Shown here piece by piece: positions 18,249-63,325 of a DNA stretch of 64,000 nucleotides. Origin of the DNA: a virus; IMG/VR virus record IMGVR_UViG_3300025010_000004, positions 1-64,000 of that record. One strand, 5' to 3'. Made by a program: the position numbers and the translations under genes. The notes beneath the pieces are model-generated. The model made no database searches, was not told the origin of the DNA, and saw only the letters and a program-made list of their open reading frames with translations. Numbering within the stretch: the first letter of the stretch is position 1; each line of letters opens with the position of its first letter.

Positions 18249-18818
18249 CTATCCAATTAAATTTTCTTGTAAAAATTCAAGATTAACTTCTTTACCAGCA
18301 CTACACATGTCTGCTAGGTGAACTATAAGTTCAGCGGTTGCGTATTCCTCAGGAAACTTTTTAGCTCTATTATGGGAAGTCCACCGACCTGTATGGTAGG
18401 CAACCGCATTACATATCTCAGAAACGTCCTTCTTAGCTATGCCCTCAAAGTCAATAGCAAGCTTAGCCAAGAATCCAGCTCCGTCTCTATCGTGAGTTTT
18501 GGTTGTGTATTTCTCCATCACTAGCCCGTATTTAACTATGTCGTGCAGGATAACGGAAGAAATAACTATGTCTTTTTCTCTACCTTCTAAATTATAAGCT
18601 CGACACAGAATGCCTGCAAAATATGTGGCAGACCTTGTATGTCGTACTAACCCACCTGTGCCATTACTTTGAGCCGGGTGGTATTTTCCAGTAGATGAAC
18701 TGGGCACCAGCCAGAAATAAGCTGGTGCCTTGTCCAACGCGAACTTTGTAAATTCACGTATGTTATCATCCTCAATCTGCCTAAGCTCATTGCCTAGTAG
18801 ATCCTCTGCTCTGCTCAT
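18249..18818 (-). CDS. HD-domain phosphohydrolase
   Basis: [34 protein letters not shown]. Confidence 0.8.
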
Positions 18819-19612
18819 TAGATAATATCCTCATAGGTGTTGCGAAGTCTTTCTATTGAAATTTCTTCTACGTCGAATCGTCCTTCTGCCCAGTGTGTTA
18901 GAATATTGACTCCGCGCCAATAAGCATTCAACCCTCCGTAGGCGTAATCATCAACATGCTCGAAAAACGCTCCACACATCAATATCTGTAGGATATTGTC
19001 AGCTCCATGCCTGTAGTAGTTGACGTTCTCACGTCTATGAGAATGTGCGAACACCAGACTTTTAGCAGTCATTTCAGCTGCCCGGTGGATTGCGTAGCGA
19101 CCTGAAACGGCCTGGTTTGCCATATTCATTAAAGAGTGCGTGAAATTAACTCCGTCGAACTCAATACCTTGTCGGTATGGAATTATGTCATGGAACCCGT
19201 GGTCTAATAGGTTAAGGTCATCGTCAAGGTTAAGGTGCTCTTTAAGTTCTGCACGGGTTTCGAGATAGCGTACAAGTCTGTCTTCGTGATTACCGTAGAT
19301 ATAAACAATACGAGGTTTGTATACTCGCTCTTTAAGTCTACGTTGCTTGTCTTGAAGTGTTCGTAGTTGGAAGAACAGAAGATCAAGCGCCATATTACCT
19401 GCGGCTATGTCGTTCTGGTATCTCCGCCCTTCCATTACTCCTGACTTGTTGAGATCCCAGTTAGATAAGCTTTCAAGAGATACGAAATCCCCCATAGTTA
19501 TAATCCGGTCAGGCCTGCGGTCAACAATTAGTTGACCTAGTATAGCGAATCTAGATAGGTCTTGCTCGGGGCCTACGTGTGCGTCAGGTATTACTAGTGT
19601 AGTATTATTTAA
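18818..19612 (-). CDS. Calcineurin-like metallophosphoesterase; appears to need a non-canonical start
   Basis: Frame extends upstream of the track start (19495) through IPDAH (motif I); then MGDF, GNHE, AHSH. In-frame TGA at 19628-19630; GGAGG 5 nt before TTA at 19612. Confidence 0.75.
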   Translation of the reverse strand, partial: LNNTTLVIPDAHVGPEQDLSRFAILGQLIVDRRPDRIITMGDFVSLESLSNWDLNKSGVMEGRRYQNDIAAGNMALDLLFFQLRTLQDKQRRLKERVYKPRIVYIYGNHEDRLVRYLETRAELKEHLNLDDDLNLLDHGFHDIIPYRQGIEFDGVNFTHSLMNMANQAVSGRYAIHRAAEMTAKSLVFAHSHRRENVNYYRHGADNILQILMCGAFFEHVDDYAYGGLNAYWRGVNILTHWAEGRFDVEEISIERLRNTYEDII

Positions 19613-34676: not shown

Positions 34677-36032
34677 CTAGAATGCCAGATCTTCAAATTT
34701 ACAAACATCAAACCTTCTCAACAATTTAAACGGTTTAAGGGCCGGCTCGTTAGGTACTGACTGAAAATTCCTAAAAGCTTTGTATGCCACTGTAGACGTT
34801 CCTGCTTCCTTGTCGCCATTTTCCTGTTTGAGGATAAGGCATAGATCGCAGTCCGCAATTATTCCTCCACCCCACCTAATCTTATCTTCTTTTTCGTCTA
34901 ACTGCACTGGTGTTATAATCCTGCAGTCGTTGTTTCTGGCGAACGTTTTAAGGTCTCTACTTCTAGCCAGAAGGTATTCCCATGATGCTAATGTTTTGTC
35001 TCCACCTCCCCTCGGAACTAACGAGATATAGTCTAGTACAAACGTTCGGACATTCTTCATGTCCACCATCATCTGCATGTAAAGGAATAATTTGTCCCAA
35101 GACCCAGGCTTGTCTGGTATAAAGAATCTATTTTTCTTAGGGGCAAAATGATCCCAGAACAAAGGCCACCACTTGTCGGCATCTTCATTCTTAGTCTGCT
35201 CAATGAAATCTTTCATGTTAGGATTAAAATCACACAAATGACGGACTTCGGCCTCTCGCAGGGCTAGCCGCTGTTCATTTGTTAGCATATTACTGGTTAT
35301 TAGCCCAACATTAATTTCACTTTTAGATGCAAGTATCCTCATCTTAACTTCTGTCTGACTCATCTCGTAAGAGATGTAACAAGAAGACCCTTCATAATTT
35401 TCATGCCCGTAGGTTAGAAACTGTAGAGCTAGTAGCGATTTACCAGCTTTACTAGGAGCACCTACTAATGTTAAACTTTTTTCTGCAAAAGGACCATGCA
35501 TATCTAGCGAAGTCAGCCCAGACTTTCTGAAATTGTACTGGACGCTCTTACCAGCAAGGCGGACCATATCACCAGAATCTAGGTTATCTCCAGCCCCATG
35601 TTGGAACATACTTTCGTACATCTCTTTCATAACAGCCACCGCGTTGTCTTCGTCCCGCTTGTCCACTGAGTCTACTAGCTTTCCAGCGCCGTCTAGTATG
35701 CACCTAAACTGATACTGAGTATGTAGTTTTTTAATTAGATCATCCGTGGTGATGCCTGATGTGTCCTTGGCTTTTATGTCTGAAATAAGATCTACGTAGA
35801 ATCTCTGCTTGTCTGGGTTGGCTACCCTGTTTGTAATCTCCATCTTTAGAACGTCCCACCCAGGAAGTTGATAATGGGTAGTAAAATGAGTGCCTATGAT
35901 GGTGTATATGTTCTGAAGCTCTTTGTTTCCGAATAGCTCTGTAGGAACTGCCATCAATAATTCTGGAGATTTCGATTCTACTATTTTTTTCAGTATCAGC
36001 ATCTCTGCTTGTGTATTTACTATTTTTGACAT
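34677..36032 (-). CDS. DnaB-like replicative helicase
   Basis: GAPSKAGKS, SYEM, VLDYI, LKTFAR...PVQL. Confidence 0.88.
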   Translation of the reverse strand: MSKIVNTQAEMLILKKIVESKSPELLMAVPTELFGNKELQNIYTIIGTHFTTHYQLPGWDVLKMEITNRVANPDKQRFYVDLISDIKAKDTSGITTDDLIKKLHTQYQFRCILDGAGKLVDSVDKRDEDNAVAVMKEMYESMFQHGAGDNLDSGDMVRLAGKSVQYNFRKSGLTSLDMHGPFAEKSLTLVGAPSKAGKSLLALQFLTYGHENYEGSSCYISYEMSQTEVKMRILASKSEINVGLITSNMLTNEQRLALREAEVRHLCDFNPNMKDFIEQTKNEDADKWWPLFWDHFAPKKNRFFIPDKPGSWDKLFLYMQMMVDMKNVRTFVLDYISLVPRGGGDKTLASWEYLLARSRDLKTFARNNDCRIITPVQLDEKEDKIRWGGGIIADCDLCLILKQENGDKEAGTSTVAYKAFRNFQSVPNEPALKPFKLLRRFDVCKFEDLAF

Positions 36033-36137
36033 AGTTGCTCCTTACTGGCGTTTTTATGAGTTGTATATTTGATTGTGGAATAAGTTGTAGTTAATTAACA
36101 GAATGGAGATGCAAGTGAATCATCAAAATGAAGGCGT

Positions 36138-36166
36138 ATTATACCACAGCAATTGATAAATGTCAA
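36138..36166 (-). promoter_or_regulatory. Consensus sigma70 promoter for the replication operon
   Basis: TTGACA-N17-TATAAT with TGTGG. Confidence 0.85.
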
Positions 36167-36248
36167 GCTTTATTTTTAACTTTTTTGTGGTCAATACCAC
36201 TTATTTTCGGGGAATATAAAATTATTTTTCAAAAAGTGAAAATAAAGC

Positions 36249-36405
36249 TTGACAAAATCGCAAAAGTGTGGTATAATACAATCTTCGAGCCAAAGCGAAG
36301 AAGATTGCTAATAGGTTGGTTTTAAGGTTTACTGTTTATAGCCTTTTCTTTTACCTTTACCCTGTGTCTACCCCGCCCGAAGGGCGGGAGGCGTTTTAAT
36401 GAGAA
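36249..36405 (+). ncRNA. Promoter-driven structured non-coding element, copy 1 (sRNA or R-loop origin)
   Basis: TTGACA-N17-TATAAT at 36249-36277; three hairpins; 47 nt identical to 55438-55484. Confidence 0.65.
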
Positions 36406-36628
36406 ATTTATCAATCTTAGCTTTATTCTCAAGTGTATCTATCAAGTCTTCACGGTCTTCTATAATACTACAAAGGTCGTAATTCTCTTCTTCAAGGTCT
36501 TCTATCTCTTCCCTCAACCTATCATTCTCATTTTCATTAAACTTTGAACGTTCATACTCACAAGTAACGCACATACTTCTAGGGCTTAGCTCATGTACTT
36601 CTCTATCGCATTGGTAGCATCGTTTCAT
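36368..36628 (-). CDS. Hypothetical Zn-finger/coiled-coil protein
   Basis: CYQC...CVTC; its last codons read through the conserved non-coding block. Confidence 0.55.
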   Translation of the reverse strand: MKRCYQCDREVHELSPRSMCVTCEYERSKFNENENDRLREEIEDLEEENYDLCSIIEDREDLIDTLENKAKIDKFLIKTPPALRAG

Positions 36629-36641
36629 TTTACCTCCTTCG

Positions 36642-36657
36642 GTAGAACATGTTCTAC
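36642..36657. promoter_or_regulatory. 16-bp palindrome site 6
   Basis: GTAGAACATGTTCTAC; supplies the TAG of 36654..37094. Confidence 0.8.
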
Positions 36658-37094
36658 CCTGCCAATAGTTCCTTAGTTATTTTAGCGGCAACCGCTCCGT
36701 CGTATAGACCAGCGTAGTTTTCTTTAAGGAACTTCATAACATCTTTAAGTTCCACCTGGCCCTCTCCAGCGTCACGCGTAACTTTTATGTACTTATGCGC
36801 AAGGGCTGTCAACTCATCTGTGCTAAGCTGCTTAGGAAGATATCCATTCAGGATAGCTATCTCAGCTTCCCTAGCATCAATATACGATTTAACGTCAGGT
36901 AGCCTATCAGAATACCTTATGCACTCGTTAGCATTATTTATAAACTTTTTAACTACGGCCACAAATTCGGCGTCTGAGGGGTTTTTATTTACCTTAGTGG
37001 CCTCACCTATTAGCGTGCCTAATAAGTCCTTTCTGAGGCCATCCTTGGCCCTCAGAGCACCTATTCTGTCAGCCCTAACATCGTCTATTAACAT
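36654..37094 (-). CDS. GatB/YqeY domain protein
   Basis: ALRAKD..RKDLLGTLIGE, EIAILNGYLPKQLS, VMKFLK..YAGLYDG. Confidence 0.85.
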   Translation of the reverse strand: MLIDDVRADRIGALRAKDGLRKDLLGTLIGEATKVNKNPSDAEFVAVVKKFINNANECIRYSDRLPDVKSYIDAREAEIAILNGYLPKQLSTDELTALAHKYIKVTRDAGEGQVELKDVMKFLKENYAGLYDGAVAAKITKELLAG

Positions 37095-51247: not shown

Positions 51248-51295
51248 GAGAATTCCTCCTTTGTCTTTCGGGCATAGCCCTACAGTTAACTTGGT

Positions 51296-51327
51296 AGGAG
51301 GCTAACCGACTCCGCCGGAAGCCTCCT
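51296..51327. terminator. Hairpin after paralogue 8
   Basis: AGGAGGCT-N16-AGCCTCCT. Confidence 0.4.
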
Positions 51328-51367
51328 TGTATATAAATTTATTCAGTTGTTCGCTACTGTGTTAATA

Positions 51368-53655: not shown

Positions 53656-55032
53656 CTACTCGATGGTTATAAGGTACGTTCCAGTATCCTTTGCATTATC
53701 TTTTTTGGTTGTCTTTGCCGGCGTGTTCTCGTAAGTTACAGCAGACACTTTTTCTTCGACTTTTCGCACAAGATCAACCTCGACCACACCTTTAGGCTTC
53801 ACTCCCCTTCTAGCCTTCGGTTTAACCTCAGCCACTACTGCCGCTTCTTCTACCTTCTTTTTAGCTGCTGGCTTCTTAGTCACAACAGGCGGAGGTAGAA
53901 CTTCTTCTACCTTTGGAGGCTCTACTACAGGTGCTTCAATTTTGTTTATATGTACAATCTTATTTCCAGGTATGTACCCCTTGTAGTTGTACGTGCTTCC
54001 TACACGGGTCCAATCTGCATGCTTACTGGCCAGCCCAAACACGAAGTCTCCAGCAGTTTCGTCGTAGCAAACAGAAAAGTCTTTACGTTGATTATCACAA
54101 TTAGGTAACGGGCACCAAGGAACTTTAACGTCACCAAGGGCTTCATGATAAACCGCAGGAACTCTGTAGTCGCAGAGAGTATCCATAGAGTATAATTCAG
54201 TCTTTCCCTGTTTCTTCATGGCTTCGATTACCTGGGTTCTATATGCAGCCGATACGCATTTAACATCCCCATAATACGGGTATTCATCTTTGGCCATATT
54301 TTTACGGTATATCATCCACCTTGCGACTGGCTTTCCATCTACCATGAGATAGCAACCTTTAGCGTAGGGCTGGTAGTGATACCACGCAGAAGGGTAAACC
54401 CCAGTATCATCAGCCACTTTAGGCCAAACCTTTCGGCTAATGTCTCCCCAATAGTCGTTTCCGACTCCCATGCAAGAGCCAGGAACTTTGGTCTTGTACA
54501 TTGTGTAGTAGTCTCTGACGGAGTTACATACCACTATCGCAGAAGGTAAGAAGCTGTCGGACACCATTTTGGCTAAATCTCTCACTTGTGCGTCTCCATA
54601 ACCAAGCTCCTTTAAATTTGTGTAGTCAGCCACAAGTTTGGCGAATGTGGTAATCTCCCACTTTAACGCTAGCTTAACTGCTCGCTCTGGAGTTGCAAAC
54701 CTAACCTCCGTCTTTGGGTCTTTCAGAATTTTGGTTATATATTCAAGCACGTCTTCTGCTTTGAAGTTAGCTTTAATGTTAGGGTATACCCTAACCTTGT
54801 CGGGATCGGATTTTACAGGGAGGGCAAGGGGCATTTCCGGCTTTACTTTGTAGCCGTAGCCTGCTCCTTCAATAACACCTTTTATCTTCTTGGTGACATT
54901 TGCCTTTATCTTCGGCAATGTTATTGCAAGCCGGAGGAACTTTTCAGCAGGCTTACCCACAACTTCTTTTGACTTCTCTGCTGTCTCAGGTTTGAGTTTG
55001 CCGAGTGCGTCCTTGTAAAATTTAAGTGCCAC
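53656..55032 (-). CDS. Phage protein with SCM-motif domain and K/P/A/V-rich tail
   Basis: GSCMG...AWY...DGKPVARWMIY; AGGAGG RBS. Confidence 0.6.
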   Translation of the reverse strand: MALKFYKDALGKLKPETAEKSKEVVGKPAEKFLRLAITLPKIKANVTKKIKGVIEGAGYGYKVKPEMPLALPVKSDPDKVRVYPNIKANFKAEDVLEYITKILKDPKTEVRFATPERAVKLALKWEITTFAKLVADYTNLKELGYGDAQVRDLAKMVSDSFLPSAIVVCNSVRDYYTMYKTKVPGSCMGVGNDYWGDISRKVWPKVADDTGVYPSAWYHYQPYAKGCYLMVDGKPVARWMIYRKNMAKDEYPYYGDVKCVSAAYRTQVIEAMKKQGKTELYSMDTLCDYRVPAVYHEALGDVKVPWCPLPNCDNQRKDFSVCYDETAGDFVFGLASKHADWTRVGSTYNYKGYIPGNKIVHINKIEAPVVEPPKVEEVLPPPVVTKKPAAKKKVEEAAVVAEVKPKARRGVKPKGVVEVDLVRKVEEKVSAVTYENTPAKTTKKDNAKDTGTYLITIE

Positions 55033-55314: not shown

Positions 55315-55484
55315 TTGACAAAATCAACTTTTTGTGGTATAATGCATTCATCGAGCCGTTAGGCGAAGATGAATGCTATAGGGTTTTAAGGTTATGCCTT
55401 GCTGTATGCCTTGCTGTATGCTTTGCTTATGACCTTAACCCTGTGTCTACCCCGCCCGAAGGGCGGGAGGCGTTTTAATGAGAA
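55315..55484 (+). ncRNA. Promoter-driven structured non-coding element, copy 2
   Basis: TTGACA-N17-TATAAT at 55315-55343; three hairpins; loop with TATGCCTTGCTG repeats; 47 nt identical to 36359-36405. Confidence 0.65.
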
Positions 55485-55485
55485 T

Positions 55486-55501
55486 GTAGAACATGTTCTA
55501 C
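55486..55501. promoter_or_regulatory. 16-bp palindrome site 11
   Basis: GTAGAACATGTTCTAC; supplies the TAG of the NAMPT-like gene. Confidence 0.8.
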
Positions 55502-57033
55502 CGGCCAAGTAACCTTGCACGTATATCTGATAGGTTACCGTCAACCAACAGCACCCCGTCCTTAAATATTGGACGCAGTAGGTCAGTGCCAGCTGCCGCT
55601 ATCATGTTTTGGTTGGCTATTGACAATCCATCAATAGCCTCAATACCTTCAGCAGTCTGGACTACAACAACCCTACCGGTCAATGACTTTTTGATCTTGT
55701 CTGTATCAGTGGCAGGATCTTTGAAGATATTAACTTCCTTTCCTTTAATTACGCAGTGCGTTGACTTCATAGCGAAACCAAAGGTATCCCTAGTATTGTA
55801 TTGGTAGGTGTACGAACCTATACCAAATACAATATTTGTGGAAGCGAATCCTTTGCGCTTTAGGCGCTCGCAGATGTCTTTAGCCCTCTCAATGGTTATA
55901 GAGTCGCCGTAGATAGCGCCTATGTGGGGGTCAAGCTGCTTGTATCCTTTGCTGTTGATAGTGCCTCCGAAGGTATCCCACAGGATTTCTATGAGTCCTT
56001 TATAGGCGCTTTCACTACACTCCGGGTCAAACCTCTCAACATATACCTCGTAAGTGGAATAGTCAATCGTAGTGTTTAGCCCACAAATAATATCAGCAGG
56101 ATCTCCAGAATCAGGACGGATTACAACTTTACCATCCCTAGCCATGATAATATCTTTGAGCTTAGGAAGAATATTGCTGGTAACATGCCACAAATCCCAA
56201 GTATCAGATACGAGAGATACAATTCCCGTAGGATATACGTCTTGGATTAATCTACGAAATGTTTCATACTCATCTACTTTTCCTCCAGCGCAGACTACGC
56301 TGTGCTCAGTCGCCGGAACGCTACAGCCCACCAATTCTTTTTCGATATTGGCGTTGTATTTATCCTCAAGATAAAGTATAGCCGGAATAGTGTCTGTTCC
56401 TACAAACGATAGCAAGTGCCCTGCCCCACTTACACAAGCTGCTTCTACGGCCCCCATACCCCGCATTGAGAAATCGTGCCCCTGGAACTGCACGAAGTCT
56501 GGCATATCAGAAGTTTCCTCAGCGTATCTAGAAAGAATTTTGTGATATTCATACGCGATAGTGGCACTTGTGGAACCCTGCCACATCTCACACGAGGCCA
56601 AGGTTTCAATGTAGTTGGTAAGCCAGCCGAATCGTGGGTCGGTATTCTCAACAGTAAGCATAGGAACCCTTAGTGGAACAAGCGTTCCCTCCGGGACCGC
56701 TTTTATCAACAAAGGAAGATGCCCAAGTTCATGTAGCGCTCTTATATGTGTAGTATCAGGTTCCGCCACGCCTAACGTGAATTTAATCACCCTGCCGTAC
56801 TCTCCAGCAACTTCATCAACAGGACGGCTGAAGAAGTTTTCGTTAAAGAAGTCGATAAGCCAGTCTTTAACGAACCCCTGGAAGGAAAACGCCACCACTT
56901 TGTCAACGAACTTAATCCTTGACGTGCGAGGAATCCATGTGCTGTACACAATCTCAGTTCCGTCAGGATACTGGTCCTTGTGTCCGATTTTGTAGAAATC
57001 ACACAGTAACGTTGCAATTAGTCCTTTACGCAT
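55498..57033 (-). CDS. Nicotinamide phosphoribosyltransferase family (NadV-like; Namat of NARP1 by context)
   Basis: DFYKIGH..QYP, HDFSMRG, SVPATEHSV, SDTWD, VIRPDSG, IYGDSIT, FGIGS, RDTFGFAMK. Confidence 0.9.
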   Translation of the reverse strand: MRKGLIATLLCDFYKIGHKDQYPDGTEIVYSTWIPRTSRIKFVDKVVAFSFQGFVKDWLIDFFNENFFSRPVDEVAGEYGRVIKFTLGVAEPDTTHIRALHELGHLPLLIKAVPEGTLVPLRVPMLTVENTDPRFGWLTNYIETLASCEMWQGSTSATIAYEYHKILSRYAEETSDMPDFVQFQGHDFSMRGMGAVEAACVSGAGHLLSFVGTDTIPAILYLEDKYNANIEKELVGCSVPATEHSVVCAGGKVDEYETFRRLIQDVYPTGIVSLVSDTWDLWHVTSNILPKLKDIIMARDGKVVIRPDSGDPADIICGLNTTIDYSTYEVYVERFDPECSESAYKGLIEILWDTFGGTINSKGYKQLDPHIGAIYGDSITIERAKDICERLKRKGFASTNIVFGIGSYTYQYNTRDTFGFAMKSTHCVIKGKEVNIFKDPATDTDKIKKSLTGRVVVVQTAEGIEAIDGLSIANQNMIAAAGTDLLRPIFKDGVLLVDGNLSDIRARLLGR

Positions 57034-57867: not shown

Positions 57868-57883
57868 GTAGAACATGTTCTAC
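57868..57883. promoter_or_regulatory. 16-bp palindrome site 12
   Basis: GTAGAACATGTTCTAC; supplies the TAG of 57880..58173. Confidence 0.8.
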
Positions 57884-58182: not shown

Positions 58183-59271
58183 TTATTCTTTCGCTTTTAT
58201 ATTTAGCACAGGTTTTATGAAATCAACTACATCAATAGTAATACCCTCCTGCGCCTTCATGACGTAGTTAATGTCTTTGTATGCCTCTGGAGCCTCATCT
58301 AGTATGCTCCTATCTGTGGAACAAACAACGCCTTCCATCTGGCCTACGAATTTATCGTAGTCAAGATTCTTCTTGGCGGCGTTTCTGCCCATAGTTCGTC
58401 CACACCCGTGAGACGCCGATGAAAGAAACTTTTCATTACCAAGTCCTTTGGTGATGTACACACCATCCCTCATATTAGCAGGAATTATGCCAAGTTGATG
58501 TGCGTCGGCTGGCGTAGCACCTTTTCGGTGCAGCACTCCTTCTTTTGTAATAATTGCGTGGTTATGGTTTTCGTTAATTAGAAGATTGCTCTTGTATGTG
58601 ACACCGAGAATCTTACATATTTTGTTTATCATTTTTAACCTGTTATATAACGCCCACTCTAACGCAAAATTCATATCCCCTAAGTAGGACAACCCAAGGT
58701 CTGATAATAAAGGAAACATTCTTCCTTGTTTCATGTACCACCCGCCTATTGTATGCCCAACGTTACGACTTCCTGAATGAATAGTCACACAATACGTGCC
58801 AGTATTTTGGCTTATCCCTATCTCTATGAAGTGATTGCCCCCTCCTAGAGTACCTAGCTGCATAACAGATTTTTCTTTTACTCTCTGTTTCACTTCTTTA
58901 GGCATGTGAGAGTGGATAACATATTCAAAATGATAGTCTGACTTATCAAGAGATGAAAATCCAGTAGGGATGGTTTTAACTATATCATCGTATAACTGTT
59001 TAAGGTTATCCTTTGATAGCTCATACTGAGGTATGTTTGTGTCAACCGAGCACATACCACATCCCACGTCGAAGCCTACGAAGCTAGGAGAGATCATGCC
59101 GTCAAGCAAGGCCACTCCGCCGATTGGAAGATCATAACCAGCGTGAACGTCAGGCATAATAGCCAATTTTTTAAGACATTCCAATGAAAGAACGTCATAA
59201 ATCTGCTGCTGCGCTGACTGCTCTATTTCTTCCATCGGCACCATAGACTGTAGTTTGTCAAGCTTGCTCAT
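58183..59271 (-). CDS. rtcB: RtcB-family RNA ligase
   Basis: MPDVHAG..LPIG, DVGCGM, GTLGGGNHFIE, HSGSR, HRKGA, SASHGCGR, DEAPEAYK. Confidence 0.93.
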   Translation of the reverse strand: MSKLDKLQSMVPMEEIEQSAQQQIYDVLSLECLKKLAIMPDVHAGYDLPIGGVALLDGMISPSFVGFDVGCGMCSVDTNIPQYELSKDNLKQLYDDIVKTIPTGFSSLDKSDYHFEYVIHSHMPKEVKQRVKEKSVMQLGTLGGGNHFIEIGISQNTGTYCVTIHSGSRNVGHTIGGWYMKQGRMFPLLSDLGLSYLGDMNFALEWALYNRLKMINKICKILGVTYKSNLLINENHNHAIITKEGVLHRKGATPADAHQLGIIPANMRDGVYITKGLGNEKFLSSASHGCGRTMGRNAAKKNLDYDKFVGQMEGVVCSTDRSILDEAPEAYKDINYVMKAQEGITIDVVDFIKPVLNIKAKE

Positions 59272-61979: not shown

Positions 61980-62068
61980 TTTTTAGTTAATAAAAAATGC
62001 TTATATTCGGTATATAATACATATAGGAGCAGTTGGATTCGGCTCAAATAACTTATACTGGAGACGCG

Positions 62069-63325
62069 ATGAACCATTTTTACGTTTACTGCTACACAAA
62101 CCCAACAAAACCTGGAAGGTTCACTTTCCCTAATACAAATCTTTCTTTTCTATATGAACCTTTTTACATCGGTAAAGGTGCTTTAGATAGGATGTATAAT
62201 CATGTTAATGAGTCAATTAAAAAGAAAAATAAAACATGGAAAAATAAAACAATTTTATCTATATTAGAATCTGGGTACAATCCTAAAGACTTTGCATTTA
62301 AGCTGGCTGTACAATTAACAGAGGAGGAGGCATACTCAGTAGAGGAAACGTTAATAGCCACTATCGGCAGGCTGTCTACTAGAAAAGGCCCACTACTTAA
62401 TATACGAACTGGCGGGTTAGGGAGTAGTAATAAAAGTTATTGGAAAACAACTAATAAACTAACCCCAATACAAGAATACGAATGTGTATCTTTATACTTA
62501 AATGGTGAATCTATTAGTACATTATCAGCTAGGTTTGGGTTATTTAAAACCGCCATCCGAGGTATATTACTACGGCACGATGTAACAATAGTACGTAAAC
62601 CCACAGAAAAAAGAAGCAAGACTTTAAGTCTCATCCCAAATATTCTAGAAGACTACGAAAACGGTATGTCATCTATAAAAATAGGACAAAAATACTGTAT
62701 ATCAAAACGCACTGTATTATCAGAGCTTAGGAAAGCAGGAGTAACTATGAAAGAGCCTGCTTTCTATAAGACTATAAAAGATGAAGATGTACCTAATATA
62801 AGAGCCGCCTTTTTACGTGGAGAACGTGTAGAAGCTTTGGCCAAAAAATATAAAGTATCCACTAATACTATAAATAGGGCTATTCGTTATAATGAAGTAG
62901 TAACAGCAACTGGAAAATTAAAAATTAAAACTAACATTACCAGGCATAACCTGCTTAAAAAACTAACCGAAGACCAAGAATATCAACTAGGTCAAGACTA
63001 CATAGCTGGTATGTCATCTAGTGAATTAGCAGCAAAGTATAACGTTTTCTACACAACAGCCCTAGCAATTTTGAAACGACTCAACATACAAACTAGGCCT
63101 AGTTCAACACCAGACAAAACAACAATTGACCTAACACCAGAAGTTATAGAAATGTACCAGTCAGGACTAAGCTCTCTCGATATATTCAGAAAGTTGCCAG
63201 TAAGTCGCAACACAATTTTACGCATTCTTCACAGAAATAATGTACCACTTAGGCAAAGTGGAAAGCAGCCTACTAAGGTTATAGGTAGTAGTGATGCAGA
63301 AGAACTTGATGCTATGATGCAATAG
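62069..63325 (+). CDS. GIY-YIG (LEM3-like) homing endonuclease with about five tandem HTH repeats
   Basis: FYVY...PFYIGKG..R..H, E..LI..IGR..GPLLN; repeated Y..G.S...LA.KY; AT-rich and opposite strand to its neighbours. Confidence 0.75.
   Translation: MNHFYVYCYTNPTKPGRFTFPNTNLSFLYEPFYIGKGALDRMYNHVNESIKKKNKTWKNKTILSILESGYNPKDFAFKLAVQLTEEEAYSVEETLIATIGRLSTRKGPLLNIRTGGLGSSNKSYWKTTNKLTPIQEYECVSLYLNGESISTLSARFGLFKTAIRGILLRHDVTIVRKPTEKRSKTLSLIPNILEDYENGMSSIKIGQKYCISKRTVLSELRKAGVTMKEPAFYKTIKDEDVPNIRAAFLRGERVEALAKKYKVSTNTINRAIRYNEVVTATGKLKIKTNITRHNLLKKLTEDQEYQLGQDYIAGMSSSELAAKYNVFYTTALAILKRLNIQTRPSSTPDKTTIDLTPEVIEMYQSGLSSLDIFRKLPVSRNTILRILHRNNVPLRQSGKQPTKVIGSSDAEELDAMMQ

Follow-up and report, generated by a model that had tools for sequence, protein, structure and literature searches.

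The question raised by positions 36,249 to 36,405 of the DNA analysed here is why a promoter that matches the bacterial consensus at every position should be followed by no gene. This DNA (the window, 64,000 nucleotides long) comprises bases 1-64000 of a 113,294-bp IMG/VR phage record, IMGVR_UViG_3300025010_000004, referred to as G000. The element fires on the + strand, against minus-strand genes, into a sequence that is predicted to fold into hairpins. It is one of four cassettes in G000, all on the + strand, which begin at 36249 (cassette 1, c1) and 55315 (c2) in the window and at 79085 (c3) and 92340 (c4) outside it. A preliminary description of the window had presented a two-copy element; both of its copies are real, and the genome holds two more. 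It is proposed here, with middling confidence, that the cassettes are autonomous genes of a new, multi-copy and highly expressed family of phage small RNAs.

Promoters without genes

G000 carries its structural genes on the + strand, from ~92.6 kb across the record end to 14.3 kb, and its early and replication genes on the minus strand, from 14.6 to 92.3 kb. In content, which is T5-like, these genes comprise a DnaB-like helicase, primase, family-A polymerase (PolA), flap exonuclease, SbcCD, ligase, NrdD, NAMPT, RtcB and six tRNAs. Each cassette consists of an A/T-rich UP-like tract, TTGACA, 17-bp spacing and TGTGGTATAAT, followed directly by a hairpin and by no gene. The cassette 1 promoter (36219..36277, +) comprises the A/T-rich UP-like tract, the -35 box TTGACA, the 17-bp spacer and the TRTG-type extended -10 TGTGGTATAAT; the consensus match of cassette 2 lies at 55315..55343 (+). 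As first described, the core pattern TTGACA-N12-TGTGGTATAAT occupies 36249-36277 and 55315-55343 on the + strand, with 12/12 consensus positions, 17-bp spacing and an extended -10 in both. The window contains five matches to the promoter pattern against 0.25 expected, and none of 100 shuffles reached five. All four G000 copies are predicted, on sequence alone, to have a promoter on their own strand with 12/12 consensus, extended -10 and UP-like tract.

The same pattern, with an A/T-rich tract resembling a full UP element ahead of it, is the genome-wide early-promoter consensus of G000, where it has 12 strong copies. Eight of these have a tRNA, or a ribosome-binding site with its gene, at a distance of 20-110 nt downstream. 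The hairpin described below as hairpin 1 follows all four strong promoters that have no gene and none of the eight that have a gene or tRNA (exact test, p = 1/495). Cassettes 1 to 3 are directed against early genes, which agrees with the antisense placement reported at first; c4 departs from it, being located in the divergent region between the early and structural blocks, antisense to no gene and with a second promoter and then the first + strand gene downstream. The TRTG-type extended -10, together with AAGGAGG ribosome-binding sites, hints at a Gram-positive-like host. No phage RNA polymerase was found among the large open reading frames (ORFs) of G000 that were examined, which are tail proteins, and a reading of the element as a phage-polymerase promoter (hairpin or T7-like TATAG) was rejected on that ground.

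Both window copies are flanked by minus-strand genes, and the copies share no conserved ORF that has a ribosome-binding site, as the preliminary description had it; reading frames and start codons differ from copy to copy. A leader with a micro-ORF, by which the cassettes would encode very short hydrophobic peptides, is hardly credible. It is suggested by c4, in which AAGAGG is followed after 5 nt by ATG and 15 codons (MVLTLTYAFICLPYP), and by c1 and c2, which are open in one frame through the tail. Against it, starts, spacing and frames are unconserved, c1 has no ATG, the spacing in c2 and c3 is 0-3 nt, a copy in a related phage (Gc, below) has a stop in the shared frame, and T-rich sequence gives hydrophobic codons by default.

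Architecture of the cassettes

Hairpin 1 is laid out as outer stem, GA, short inner stem-loop, GA(A) and outer stem, and starts 1-2 nt past the -10 in c1 and c2. The outer stem is CAATCTTC/GAAGATTG in c1, GCATTCATC/GATGAATGC in c2 and c4, and GCATATCTT/AAGATATGC in c3; the stems of c1 and c2 enclose GAGCC..GCGAA. In cassette 1 (36279..36307, +) an 8-bp outer stem, a GA/GAA internal loop and a 2-bp inner stem are predicted, and the RNA and DNA folds agree; in cassette 2 (55344..55376, +) the outer stem has 9 bp and the GA/GAA loop is followed by a GCC/GGC inner stem and a GUUA loop. The claim that differing paired stems surround a conserved core is thus borne out in both window copies, and none of 20 shuffled genomes gave the hairpin core with a stem of at least 7 bp. 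The core was searched for by regular expression and stem check in three genomes (G000 and two relatives, G001 and G002).

A series of short words follows hairpin 1, beginning with CUAAUAGG, CUAUAGGG, UUAUAGG or CUAAGAGG, then a UAAGGU-type word and then one to three (A/U)GCCUU words, so that the conserved segment can be summarised as CUAWAGG...UAAGGUU...UGCCUU. At its end the region is pyrimidine-rich, and this stretch folds back on the AGG words to give hairpin 2. The linker and hairpin 2 region of cassette 1 (36308..36365, +) reads CUAAUAGG, then UAAGGUU...AGCCUU / ACCUUUACCCUG; it is pyrimidine-rich (49% T), and its predicted pairs include G·U, which is possible on the + strand alone. Hairpin 2 of cassette 2 (55378..55444, +) pairs AUAGGGU..UAAGGUUAUG with UAUGACCUUA ACCCUGU and has AUGCCUUGCUGU repeated 2.9 times in its loop (55394-55428).

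Cassettes 1 and 2 alone share a 47-nt tail with an 11-bp GC-rich stem, a GAA loop, and then G and UUUU. The 47-nt block, with CCCGCCCGAAGGGCGGG, has two exact + strand matches against 0.06 expected, as the identical block with terminator first noted in c1 and c2 would have it. As a predicted intrinsic terminator it covers 36366..36397 (+) in cassette 1, where it reads GUCU-AC-CCCGCCC GAA GGGCGGG-AGGC, G, UUUU, and 55445..55476 (+) in cassette 2, where a GTAGAACATGTTCTAC palindrome stands directly after it, at 55486. The T-run is on the + side only, and GUAGACAC follows the stem on the minus strand, which speaks against the possibility, raised at the outset, that the block is a mere terminator for minus-strand messages. 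As part of the element the shared tail holds for c1 and c2 and fails for c3 and c4, which, like the copies of the relative G001, have no recognisable intrinsic terminator. The cassette 1 terminator also encodes the final codons of the minus-strand ORF 36368-36628. This ORF (86 aa) has a zinc-ribbon and an acidic coiled-coil; its last ~10 codons (LIKTPPALRAG) come from the cassette tail, and its PHROG match spans residues 3-41 only.

Strand polarity and covariation

The folding energies differ between the strands. As RNA, the + strand of c2 folds at -61.7 kcal/mol (z = -7.1) and the minus strand at -45.6 kcal/mol (z = -4.6); the corresponding values are -38.6 and -32.9 kcal/mol for c1, and -30.8 and -25.6 kcal/mol for c4. 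No real difference exists in c3 (-25.2 vs -24.9 kcal/mol). The stems of hairpin 2 and of the terminator hold G·U pairs, three of them in hairpin 2 of c2, which become A·C on the opposite strand. The conserved internal loop is GA/GAA on the + strand and UC/UUC on the minus strand, and is purine-purine on the + strand only. The fold bias, the G·U pairs and the GA/GAA loop therefore point to a single-stranded molecule of + sense as the object of selection.

The covariation that was sought among homologues is present in hairpin 1. Five distinct outer stems (CAATCTTC, GCATTCATC, GCATATCTT, AGTC and GTTCAG, the last two from G001) provide ~36 Watson-Crick pairs with no mismatch around GAG..CGA(A). 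RNAalifold recovers the hairpin 1 helix with three pairs changed on both sides, from a MAFFT alignment that shifts c3 by one column; MAFFT misplaced the 2x2 loop of c3 and the variable hairpin 2. Hairpin 2 is supported by conserved AAGGU/ACCUU-type words and by G·U pairs, without clean covariation.

The core has some likeness to kink-turns (Kt-7, U4 5' stem-loop, C/D box) in its GCC/GGC helix flanked by GA (5' strand) and GAA (3' strand), as in Kt-7 (GGCGAAGAACC / GGGAGCC). This candidate was rejected, as the kink-turn register puts the outer stem out of phase (U·C, G·U, A·A, A·C) relative to the covarying pairs, and as c3 and the G001 copy Ge have GA/GA without a bulge. The covarying pairs support a plain 2x3 G·A internal loop (2x2 in c3 and Ge). 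A hammerhead-like reading of the GA-stem-GAA arrangement was also rejected, the CUGA strand and the three-way junction being missing.

Cassettes in related phages

G000 belongs to a lineage without cultured relative. The nearest isolate phages have a PolA only ~27% identical to that of G000, and a search of the isolate phage collection with DNA and with the helicase and PolA proteins returned no close relative; the sole DNA match was the promoter word, in two Vibrio phages. In IMG/VR, initial pattern and single-protein scans came back empty, and a helicase profile then found three relatives, including G001 and G002. P0002, the closest relative at 57% identity (on a contig of 112,665 bp), stands outside the comparison, together with eight further contigs encoding the identical helicase.

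G001 (105,687 bp, helicase 45% identical) is a mirror image of G000 with the same promoter consensus, and has three clear and two partial copies. Ga (G001 18948, minus strand) and Gc (3451, +) both have AGUC-GAGCGUCAAGCGAA-GACU as hairpin 1, and Gb (51379, minus strand) has a plain 7-bp hairpin. Ge (~80057, minus strand) has GUUCAG-GAGCACUUGUGCGA-CUGAAC and a poor -35, and Gd (7020, +) is without hairpin 1. A tRNA-like reading of CCUAUAGCUCAG in Gd was rejected after ARAGORN found zero tRNAs in G001. CUAUAG, UAAGGUUU and UGCCUU-type words occur downstream in each copy, in the order seen in G000. Between two G001 strains the first ~55 nt past the -10 are identical, and the promoter spacer and everything further downstream differ. 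Ga, Gb and Gc each have a C/A-rich tail that contains 7% G, a value in the lowest 1% of windows, and 200 nt of the Ga tract is non-coding; we infer that these G-poor tails may provide a Rho-type stop in place of the terminator of c1 and c2. Opposite the Ga and Gb tails (G001 18500-18925 and 51250-51350), the sense strand of the early operon is G-rich with many GGG runs (GGGUUAGGG-type), and these stretches are potentially prone to G-quadruplexes or R-loops in early transcripts.

In G002 (helicase 37% identical) two antisense promoter copies are followed by AGAACCUGUUCU..CCUAAUAGGG..AUUAUGCC, and these can be taken as tentative family members. A pattern scan of metagenomes matched a strain variant of c1 and G001 itself, and nothing else. 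A pattern too loose to be informative, run over prokaryote genomes, gave at least 120 matching stretches, and among the 80 loci listed none has both a -35 box and an outer stem.

Two positions are shared between G000 and G001. Cassette 1 is back-to-back with the promoter of the helicase-primase-PolA operon, an exact TTGACA-N12-TGTGGTATAAT at 36138..36166 (minus strand) from which a ~110-nt leader runs to the DnaB-like helicase gene (34677-36032); the adjacency to this operon noted at the start is therefore correct, and Gb stands back-to-back with the helicase-operon promoter of G001 likewise, where a GIY-YIG endonuclease gene is inserted. The other shared position is the early/late divergence, occupied by c4 and by Gc, which point in opposite directions with respect to the orthologous genes on either side. 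The flipped orientation at a shared position argues that the cassette acts as an autonomous unit and not as the leader of one gene.

The copies of G000 are mosaic in make-up. Over 41 nt of promoter, up to one base past the -10, c1 and c3 are identical (G000 79074-79114 in c3), c2 and c4 have an identical hairpin 1 (G000 92369-92401 in c4), and c1 and c2 have the common tail. In a metagenomic strain variant, the 3' half of hairpin 2 in c1 is of the c2 type. Such patterns point to gene conversion among the cassettes. The contig of that variant, L036 (Ga0209318_1009981), was also compared over 255-1928 with window 34683-36238; both flanks are 96-98% identical and the helicase gene has no nucleotide match. 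The helicase allele thus appears to have been swapped in the strain that bears the c2-type cassette 1, another instance of mosaicism.

The mosaics and the shared positions also bear on an explanation at the level of DNA, in which the unit would be a strong promoter with a promoter-abutting inverted repeat and no RNA would be involved. Such an orphan cassette could block minus-strand read-through head-on, drive a divergent partner promoter, or be the expression cassette left behind by free-standing homing endonuclease genes, which are gained and lost. The inverted repeat does always abut the -10 (offset 1-5 nt) and reach upstream of the expected transcription start (+1). Promoter, hairpin and tail modules are exchanged between copies, and another strong promoter stands back-to-back with c1/Gb and likewise with c4/Gc. 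Cassette 2 gives the impression of an insertion that separates a junction palindrome from the ribosome-binding site of the next gene, two features that abut elsewhere (e.g. at 57868), and the GIY-YIG endonuclease genes of G001 stand directly beside Gb, Gc and Gcv in the same orientation. Even so, this explanation is unlikely. The core is asymmetric (GA opposite GAA) and strand-specific, and the stems vary in sequence, which is ill-suited to a dimeric DNA-binding protein. The ~55 nt past the promoter are conserved and folded with + strand polarity, and c1 and c2 have a dedicated + strand terminator. The single endonuclease gene of G000 is not beside a cassette, and tblastn finds no endonuclease remnant near c1-c4. 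Positions are kept between phages at only 45% helicase identity.

A proposed small-RNA family

Read from the sequence, the cassettes have a promoter, no ORF, + strand polarity of fold and terminator, a covarying hairpin, modular copies and conservation in relatives. The preliminary description's second suggestion, a small-RNA family with a constant scaffold and a swappable loop, fits most of this evidence; its weak side is that no target was found in the phage. If the cassettes are small-RNA genes, the host sigma-70/sigma-A RNA polymerase would fire early from the near-perfect promoter (UP tract, -35, TRTG extended -10 and -10), and the product would be a short untranslated transcript of roughly 60-130 nt. 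This transcript would start at or within a hairpin whose internal loop is a tandem G·A (GA/GA(A)), and the conserved segment after it would fold as the second, pyrimidine-rich hairpin. Transcripts of c1 and c2 would be released at the intrinsic terminator, and those of Ga, Gb and Gc would run into the C/A-rich, G-poor tract with its putative Rho-type stop. The RNA would accumulate and presumably act as RNA, either as a decoy or sponge, stabilised by its 5' hairpin, that takes up an RNA-binding factor of host or phage, or as a pyrimidine-rich pairing RNA. An alternative mode would be a cis-antisense effect on minus-strand read-through transcripts, as with lambda oop. The number of gene copies and the strength of the promoters speak for a role that is stoichiometric and depends on dose.

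Little has been charted of the small RNAs that virulent phages make. In virulent Pseudomonas phages, antisense and 5'-proximal small RNAs with their own start sites have been described, and one of these lies upstream of a gene for a primase/helicase (PMC10914365). Multi-copy modules behind host promoters of the greatest possible strength, as in G000, would point to an RNA needed in bulk early in infection, such as a decoy, a sponge or a device that marks transcription boundaries. For metagenome searches, a ready model is provided by the conserved G·A core together with the clean covariation.

Several observations weigh against a small-RNA family. A search for exactly complementary targets in the phage gave no runs beyond chance, and duplex energies against 162 phage translation-initiation regions were no stronger than those of shuffled controls (z = +0.8 to -1.5). 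The transcript ends of c3, c4 and the G001 copies are guesses, since these have no recognisable terminator. The comparative set is small, with three phage lineages and ~10 copies, some of which are related by gene conversion. The position of hairpin 1 relative to the start site is a further difficulty. Its outer stem begins 1-5 nt past the -10, upstream of the expected +1, as the preliminary description had correctly observed for the 5' arm. With a start ~7 nt past the -10, the RNA retains only 0-7 of the 4-9 outer pairs. Six outer pairs lie upstream of +1 in c2 and c4, five in c1 and four in Ga and Gc, which is too many for chance. As these upstream pairs fall outside the RNA, their selection is not explained by this RNA alone.

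A helix over the promoter discriminator

A selected helix that overlaps the promoter discriminator is a concrete mechanistic puzzle. Every copy except c1 has a purine 6-7 nt past the -10, as for a normal start. The predicted RNA retains the G·A core and the inner stem-loop in all copies, in Ga and Gc only if it starts at the G at 6 nt; a start at the A one nucleotide later would remove the first G of the core. The upstream pairs may possibly come from start-site heterogeneity with selection for a flush 5' helix, from a role of the non-template DNA, or from module recombination as a by-product.

It is improbable that selection acts on the hairpin as folded non-template DNA, or as part of a nucleic acid spanning the discriminator, so that a perfect sigma-70/sigma-A promoter would serve not as an RNA gene but as a strand-specific priming or replisome-loading site or as a trap for RNA polymerase. 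If this were true, distant phages would carry four to five such sites per genome and would have retained them both beside the replication operon and where the early and late blocks diverge. The argument for a DNA hairpin, made in the preliminary description, holds for G000, where hairpin 1 as single-stranded DNA folds at -6 to -10 kcal/mol. It fails in G001, where the value is -1.8 kcal/mol (z = 0.16), so that a DNA-hairpin mechanism is not conserved, whereas the GAG..CGAA core is.

The other suggestion of the preliminary description was a transcription-primed R-loop origin, in which the transcript would stay hybridised, the displaced strand would fold as hairpin 1 and the replisome would be loaded there. 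Origins of this kind are known, T4 ori(uvsY)/ori(34) and ColE1 being promoter-primed hybrids, and the cassettes resemble them and the ColE1 RNA II in having a promoter with a potentially priming transcript near replication genes. The adjacency of c1 and Gb to the helicase-primase-polymerase operon stands in favour of such an origin, as do the fact that the full hairpin 1 needs a strand with bases upstream of +1 and the position of c3 within an 825-bp non-coding stretch that has an 11-bp repeat (3.7 copies) and palindromes. The remaining evidence makes an R-loop origin quite improbable. Gene orientation flips at ~14 kb and ~92 kb, and only there does the cumulative GC/AT skew turn, with nothing at 36, 55 or 79 kb; the skew check proposed earlier thus gave no origin signal, in a genome where skew does not distinguish replication from transcription. 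The transcripts contain few purines (33-40%; G 7-22%), and pyrimidine-rich RNA on purine-rich DNA forms the less stable class of hybrid. No AT-rich unwinding element lies past the promoter, where the sequence is instead structured and in part GC-rich, and c1 and c2 stop at a GC-rich hairpin ~120 nt downstream. Hairpin 2 depends on G·U pairs, and the G001 hairpin is unstable as DNA. The cassettes also differ from the T4 and ColE1 origins in their dispersed copies (four to five per genome).

Comparison with known systems

Rfam 15 gave no family for any copy. The whole window at gathering thresholds returned a tRNA only, and permissive scans of c1, c2, c3, c4, Ga, Gb, Gc and the G002 copies returned chance microRNA-type matches far below threshold. 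Lambda oop and P22 sar are short antisense RNAs of phages, each transcribed from a sigma-70 promoter of its own and ended by an intrinsic terminator, and oop was once proposed as a primer. Like oop, the cassettes would give a small untranslated transcript that is convergent with the main early operon, stands beside replication genes and overlaps the 3' end of an upstream gene, as the c1 tail does with the last codons of ORF 36368-36628. Unlike oop, they are multi-copy (4-5 per genome), modular and shared between loci, with a conserved 5' GA/GAA hairpin over the promoter discriminator; c4 and Gc are antisense to nothing, and no sequence similarity was found. The Firmicutes C-rich/UCCC-motif small RNAs of the RsaE/RoxS type share with the cassettes the unpaired, pyrimidine-rich RCCUU/CCUCC/CCCUA words of loops and tails and the 5' hairpin, and with c1 and c2 the terminator. 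They differ in that the cassettes showed no preference for phage ribosome-binding regions in the duplex energies and no similarity to them in sequence or model.

A cis-acting, promoter-proximal RNA signal of the lambda nut, HK022 put or lambda PR'-tR' type, in which a phage or host factor would load on the nascent hairpin and UGCCUUU and alter the RNA polymerase, making it either halt at the nearby terminator or pass through it, is rather unlikely. The element is directly downstream of early promoters, and its hairpin followed by a short conserved linear motif, with a terminator in c1 and c2 (promoter, signal, terminator), recalls lambda nut, rrn boxB-boxA and HK022 put. The word UGCCUUUAA in Ga resembles, in an unscored comparison, boxA (UGCUCUUUAA). 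c4 and Gc head the early/late divergence, c4 being followed by a second promoter and the structural genes, and the -10-like TATAG/TATAAT word after hairpin 1 in all copies could be a sigma-dependent pause signal. Against such a signal, most cassettes have no downstream operon, and beyond c1, c2, c3, Ga and Gb there is only the antisense of early genes to read into. The opposite orientation of c4 and Gc relative to orthologous flanks means that the element does not serve one operon. The boxA-like word is one base short of boxA, the hairpin has an internal loop and not a GNRA-like pentaloop, the nut-like and leader models of Rfam gave zero matches, and a scan of 25 ORF products turned up no N- or Q-like protein. 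A lambda-type nut site in particular was rejected for its one-base-short boxA-like word, its other hairpin type and the lack of an operon behind most copies; a nut/put-like signal is possible for c4 and Gc and would find nothing to act on at most of the others.

Neighbouring genes and other repeats

An RNA-repair/NAD set surrounds cassette 2 (window 53656-55032, 58183-59271, 55498-57033 and 36654-37094) and consists of an RtcB ligase, NAMPT and a YqeY-like protein; a 458-aa protein without family accompanies it. The only + strand gene within the minus-strand early block is at window 62033-63325 and encodes a GIY-YIG homing endonuclease that is 31-33% identical to the two endonucleases flanking Gb and Gc in G001. 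The "direct terminal repeat" of the record is 127 bp long (G000 1-127 and 113168-113294), a length that fits an assembler overlap.

The stretch around cassette 3, G000 78890-79715, contains two junction palindromes, 3.7 copies of TAAGGTGCCTG (11-bp period, 79670-79710) and other 12-nt repeats, and is a candidate origin, packaging region or injection-control region. The junction palindrome itself, GTAGAA-N4-TTCTAC, is often lengthened to AGGTAGAACATGTTCTACCT and has 31 sites in the genome, from 7791 to 63037 in the window and on to G000 101606. It is placed at gene junctions of the early block, usually a few bases from the AGGAGG of the next gene, and often provides a TAG stop; the site at 55486 adjoins the 3' end of cassette 2. 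In G002, two antisense promoters have a related sequence, AGAACCTGTTCT, directly behind them.

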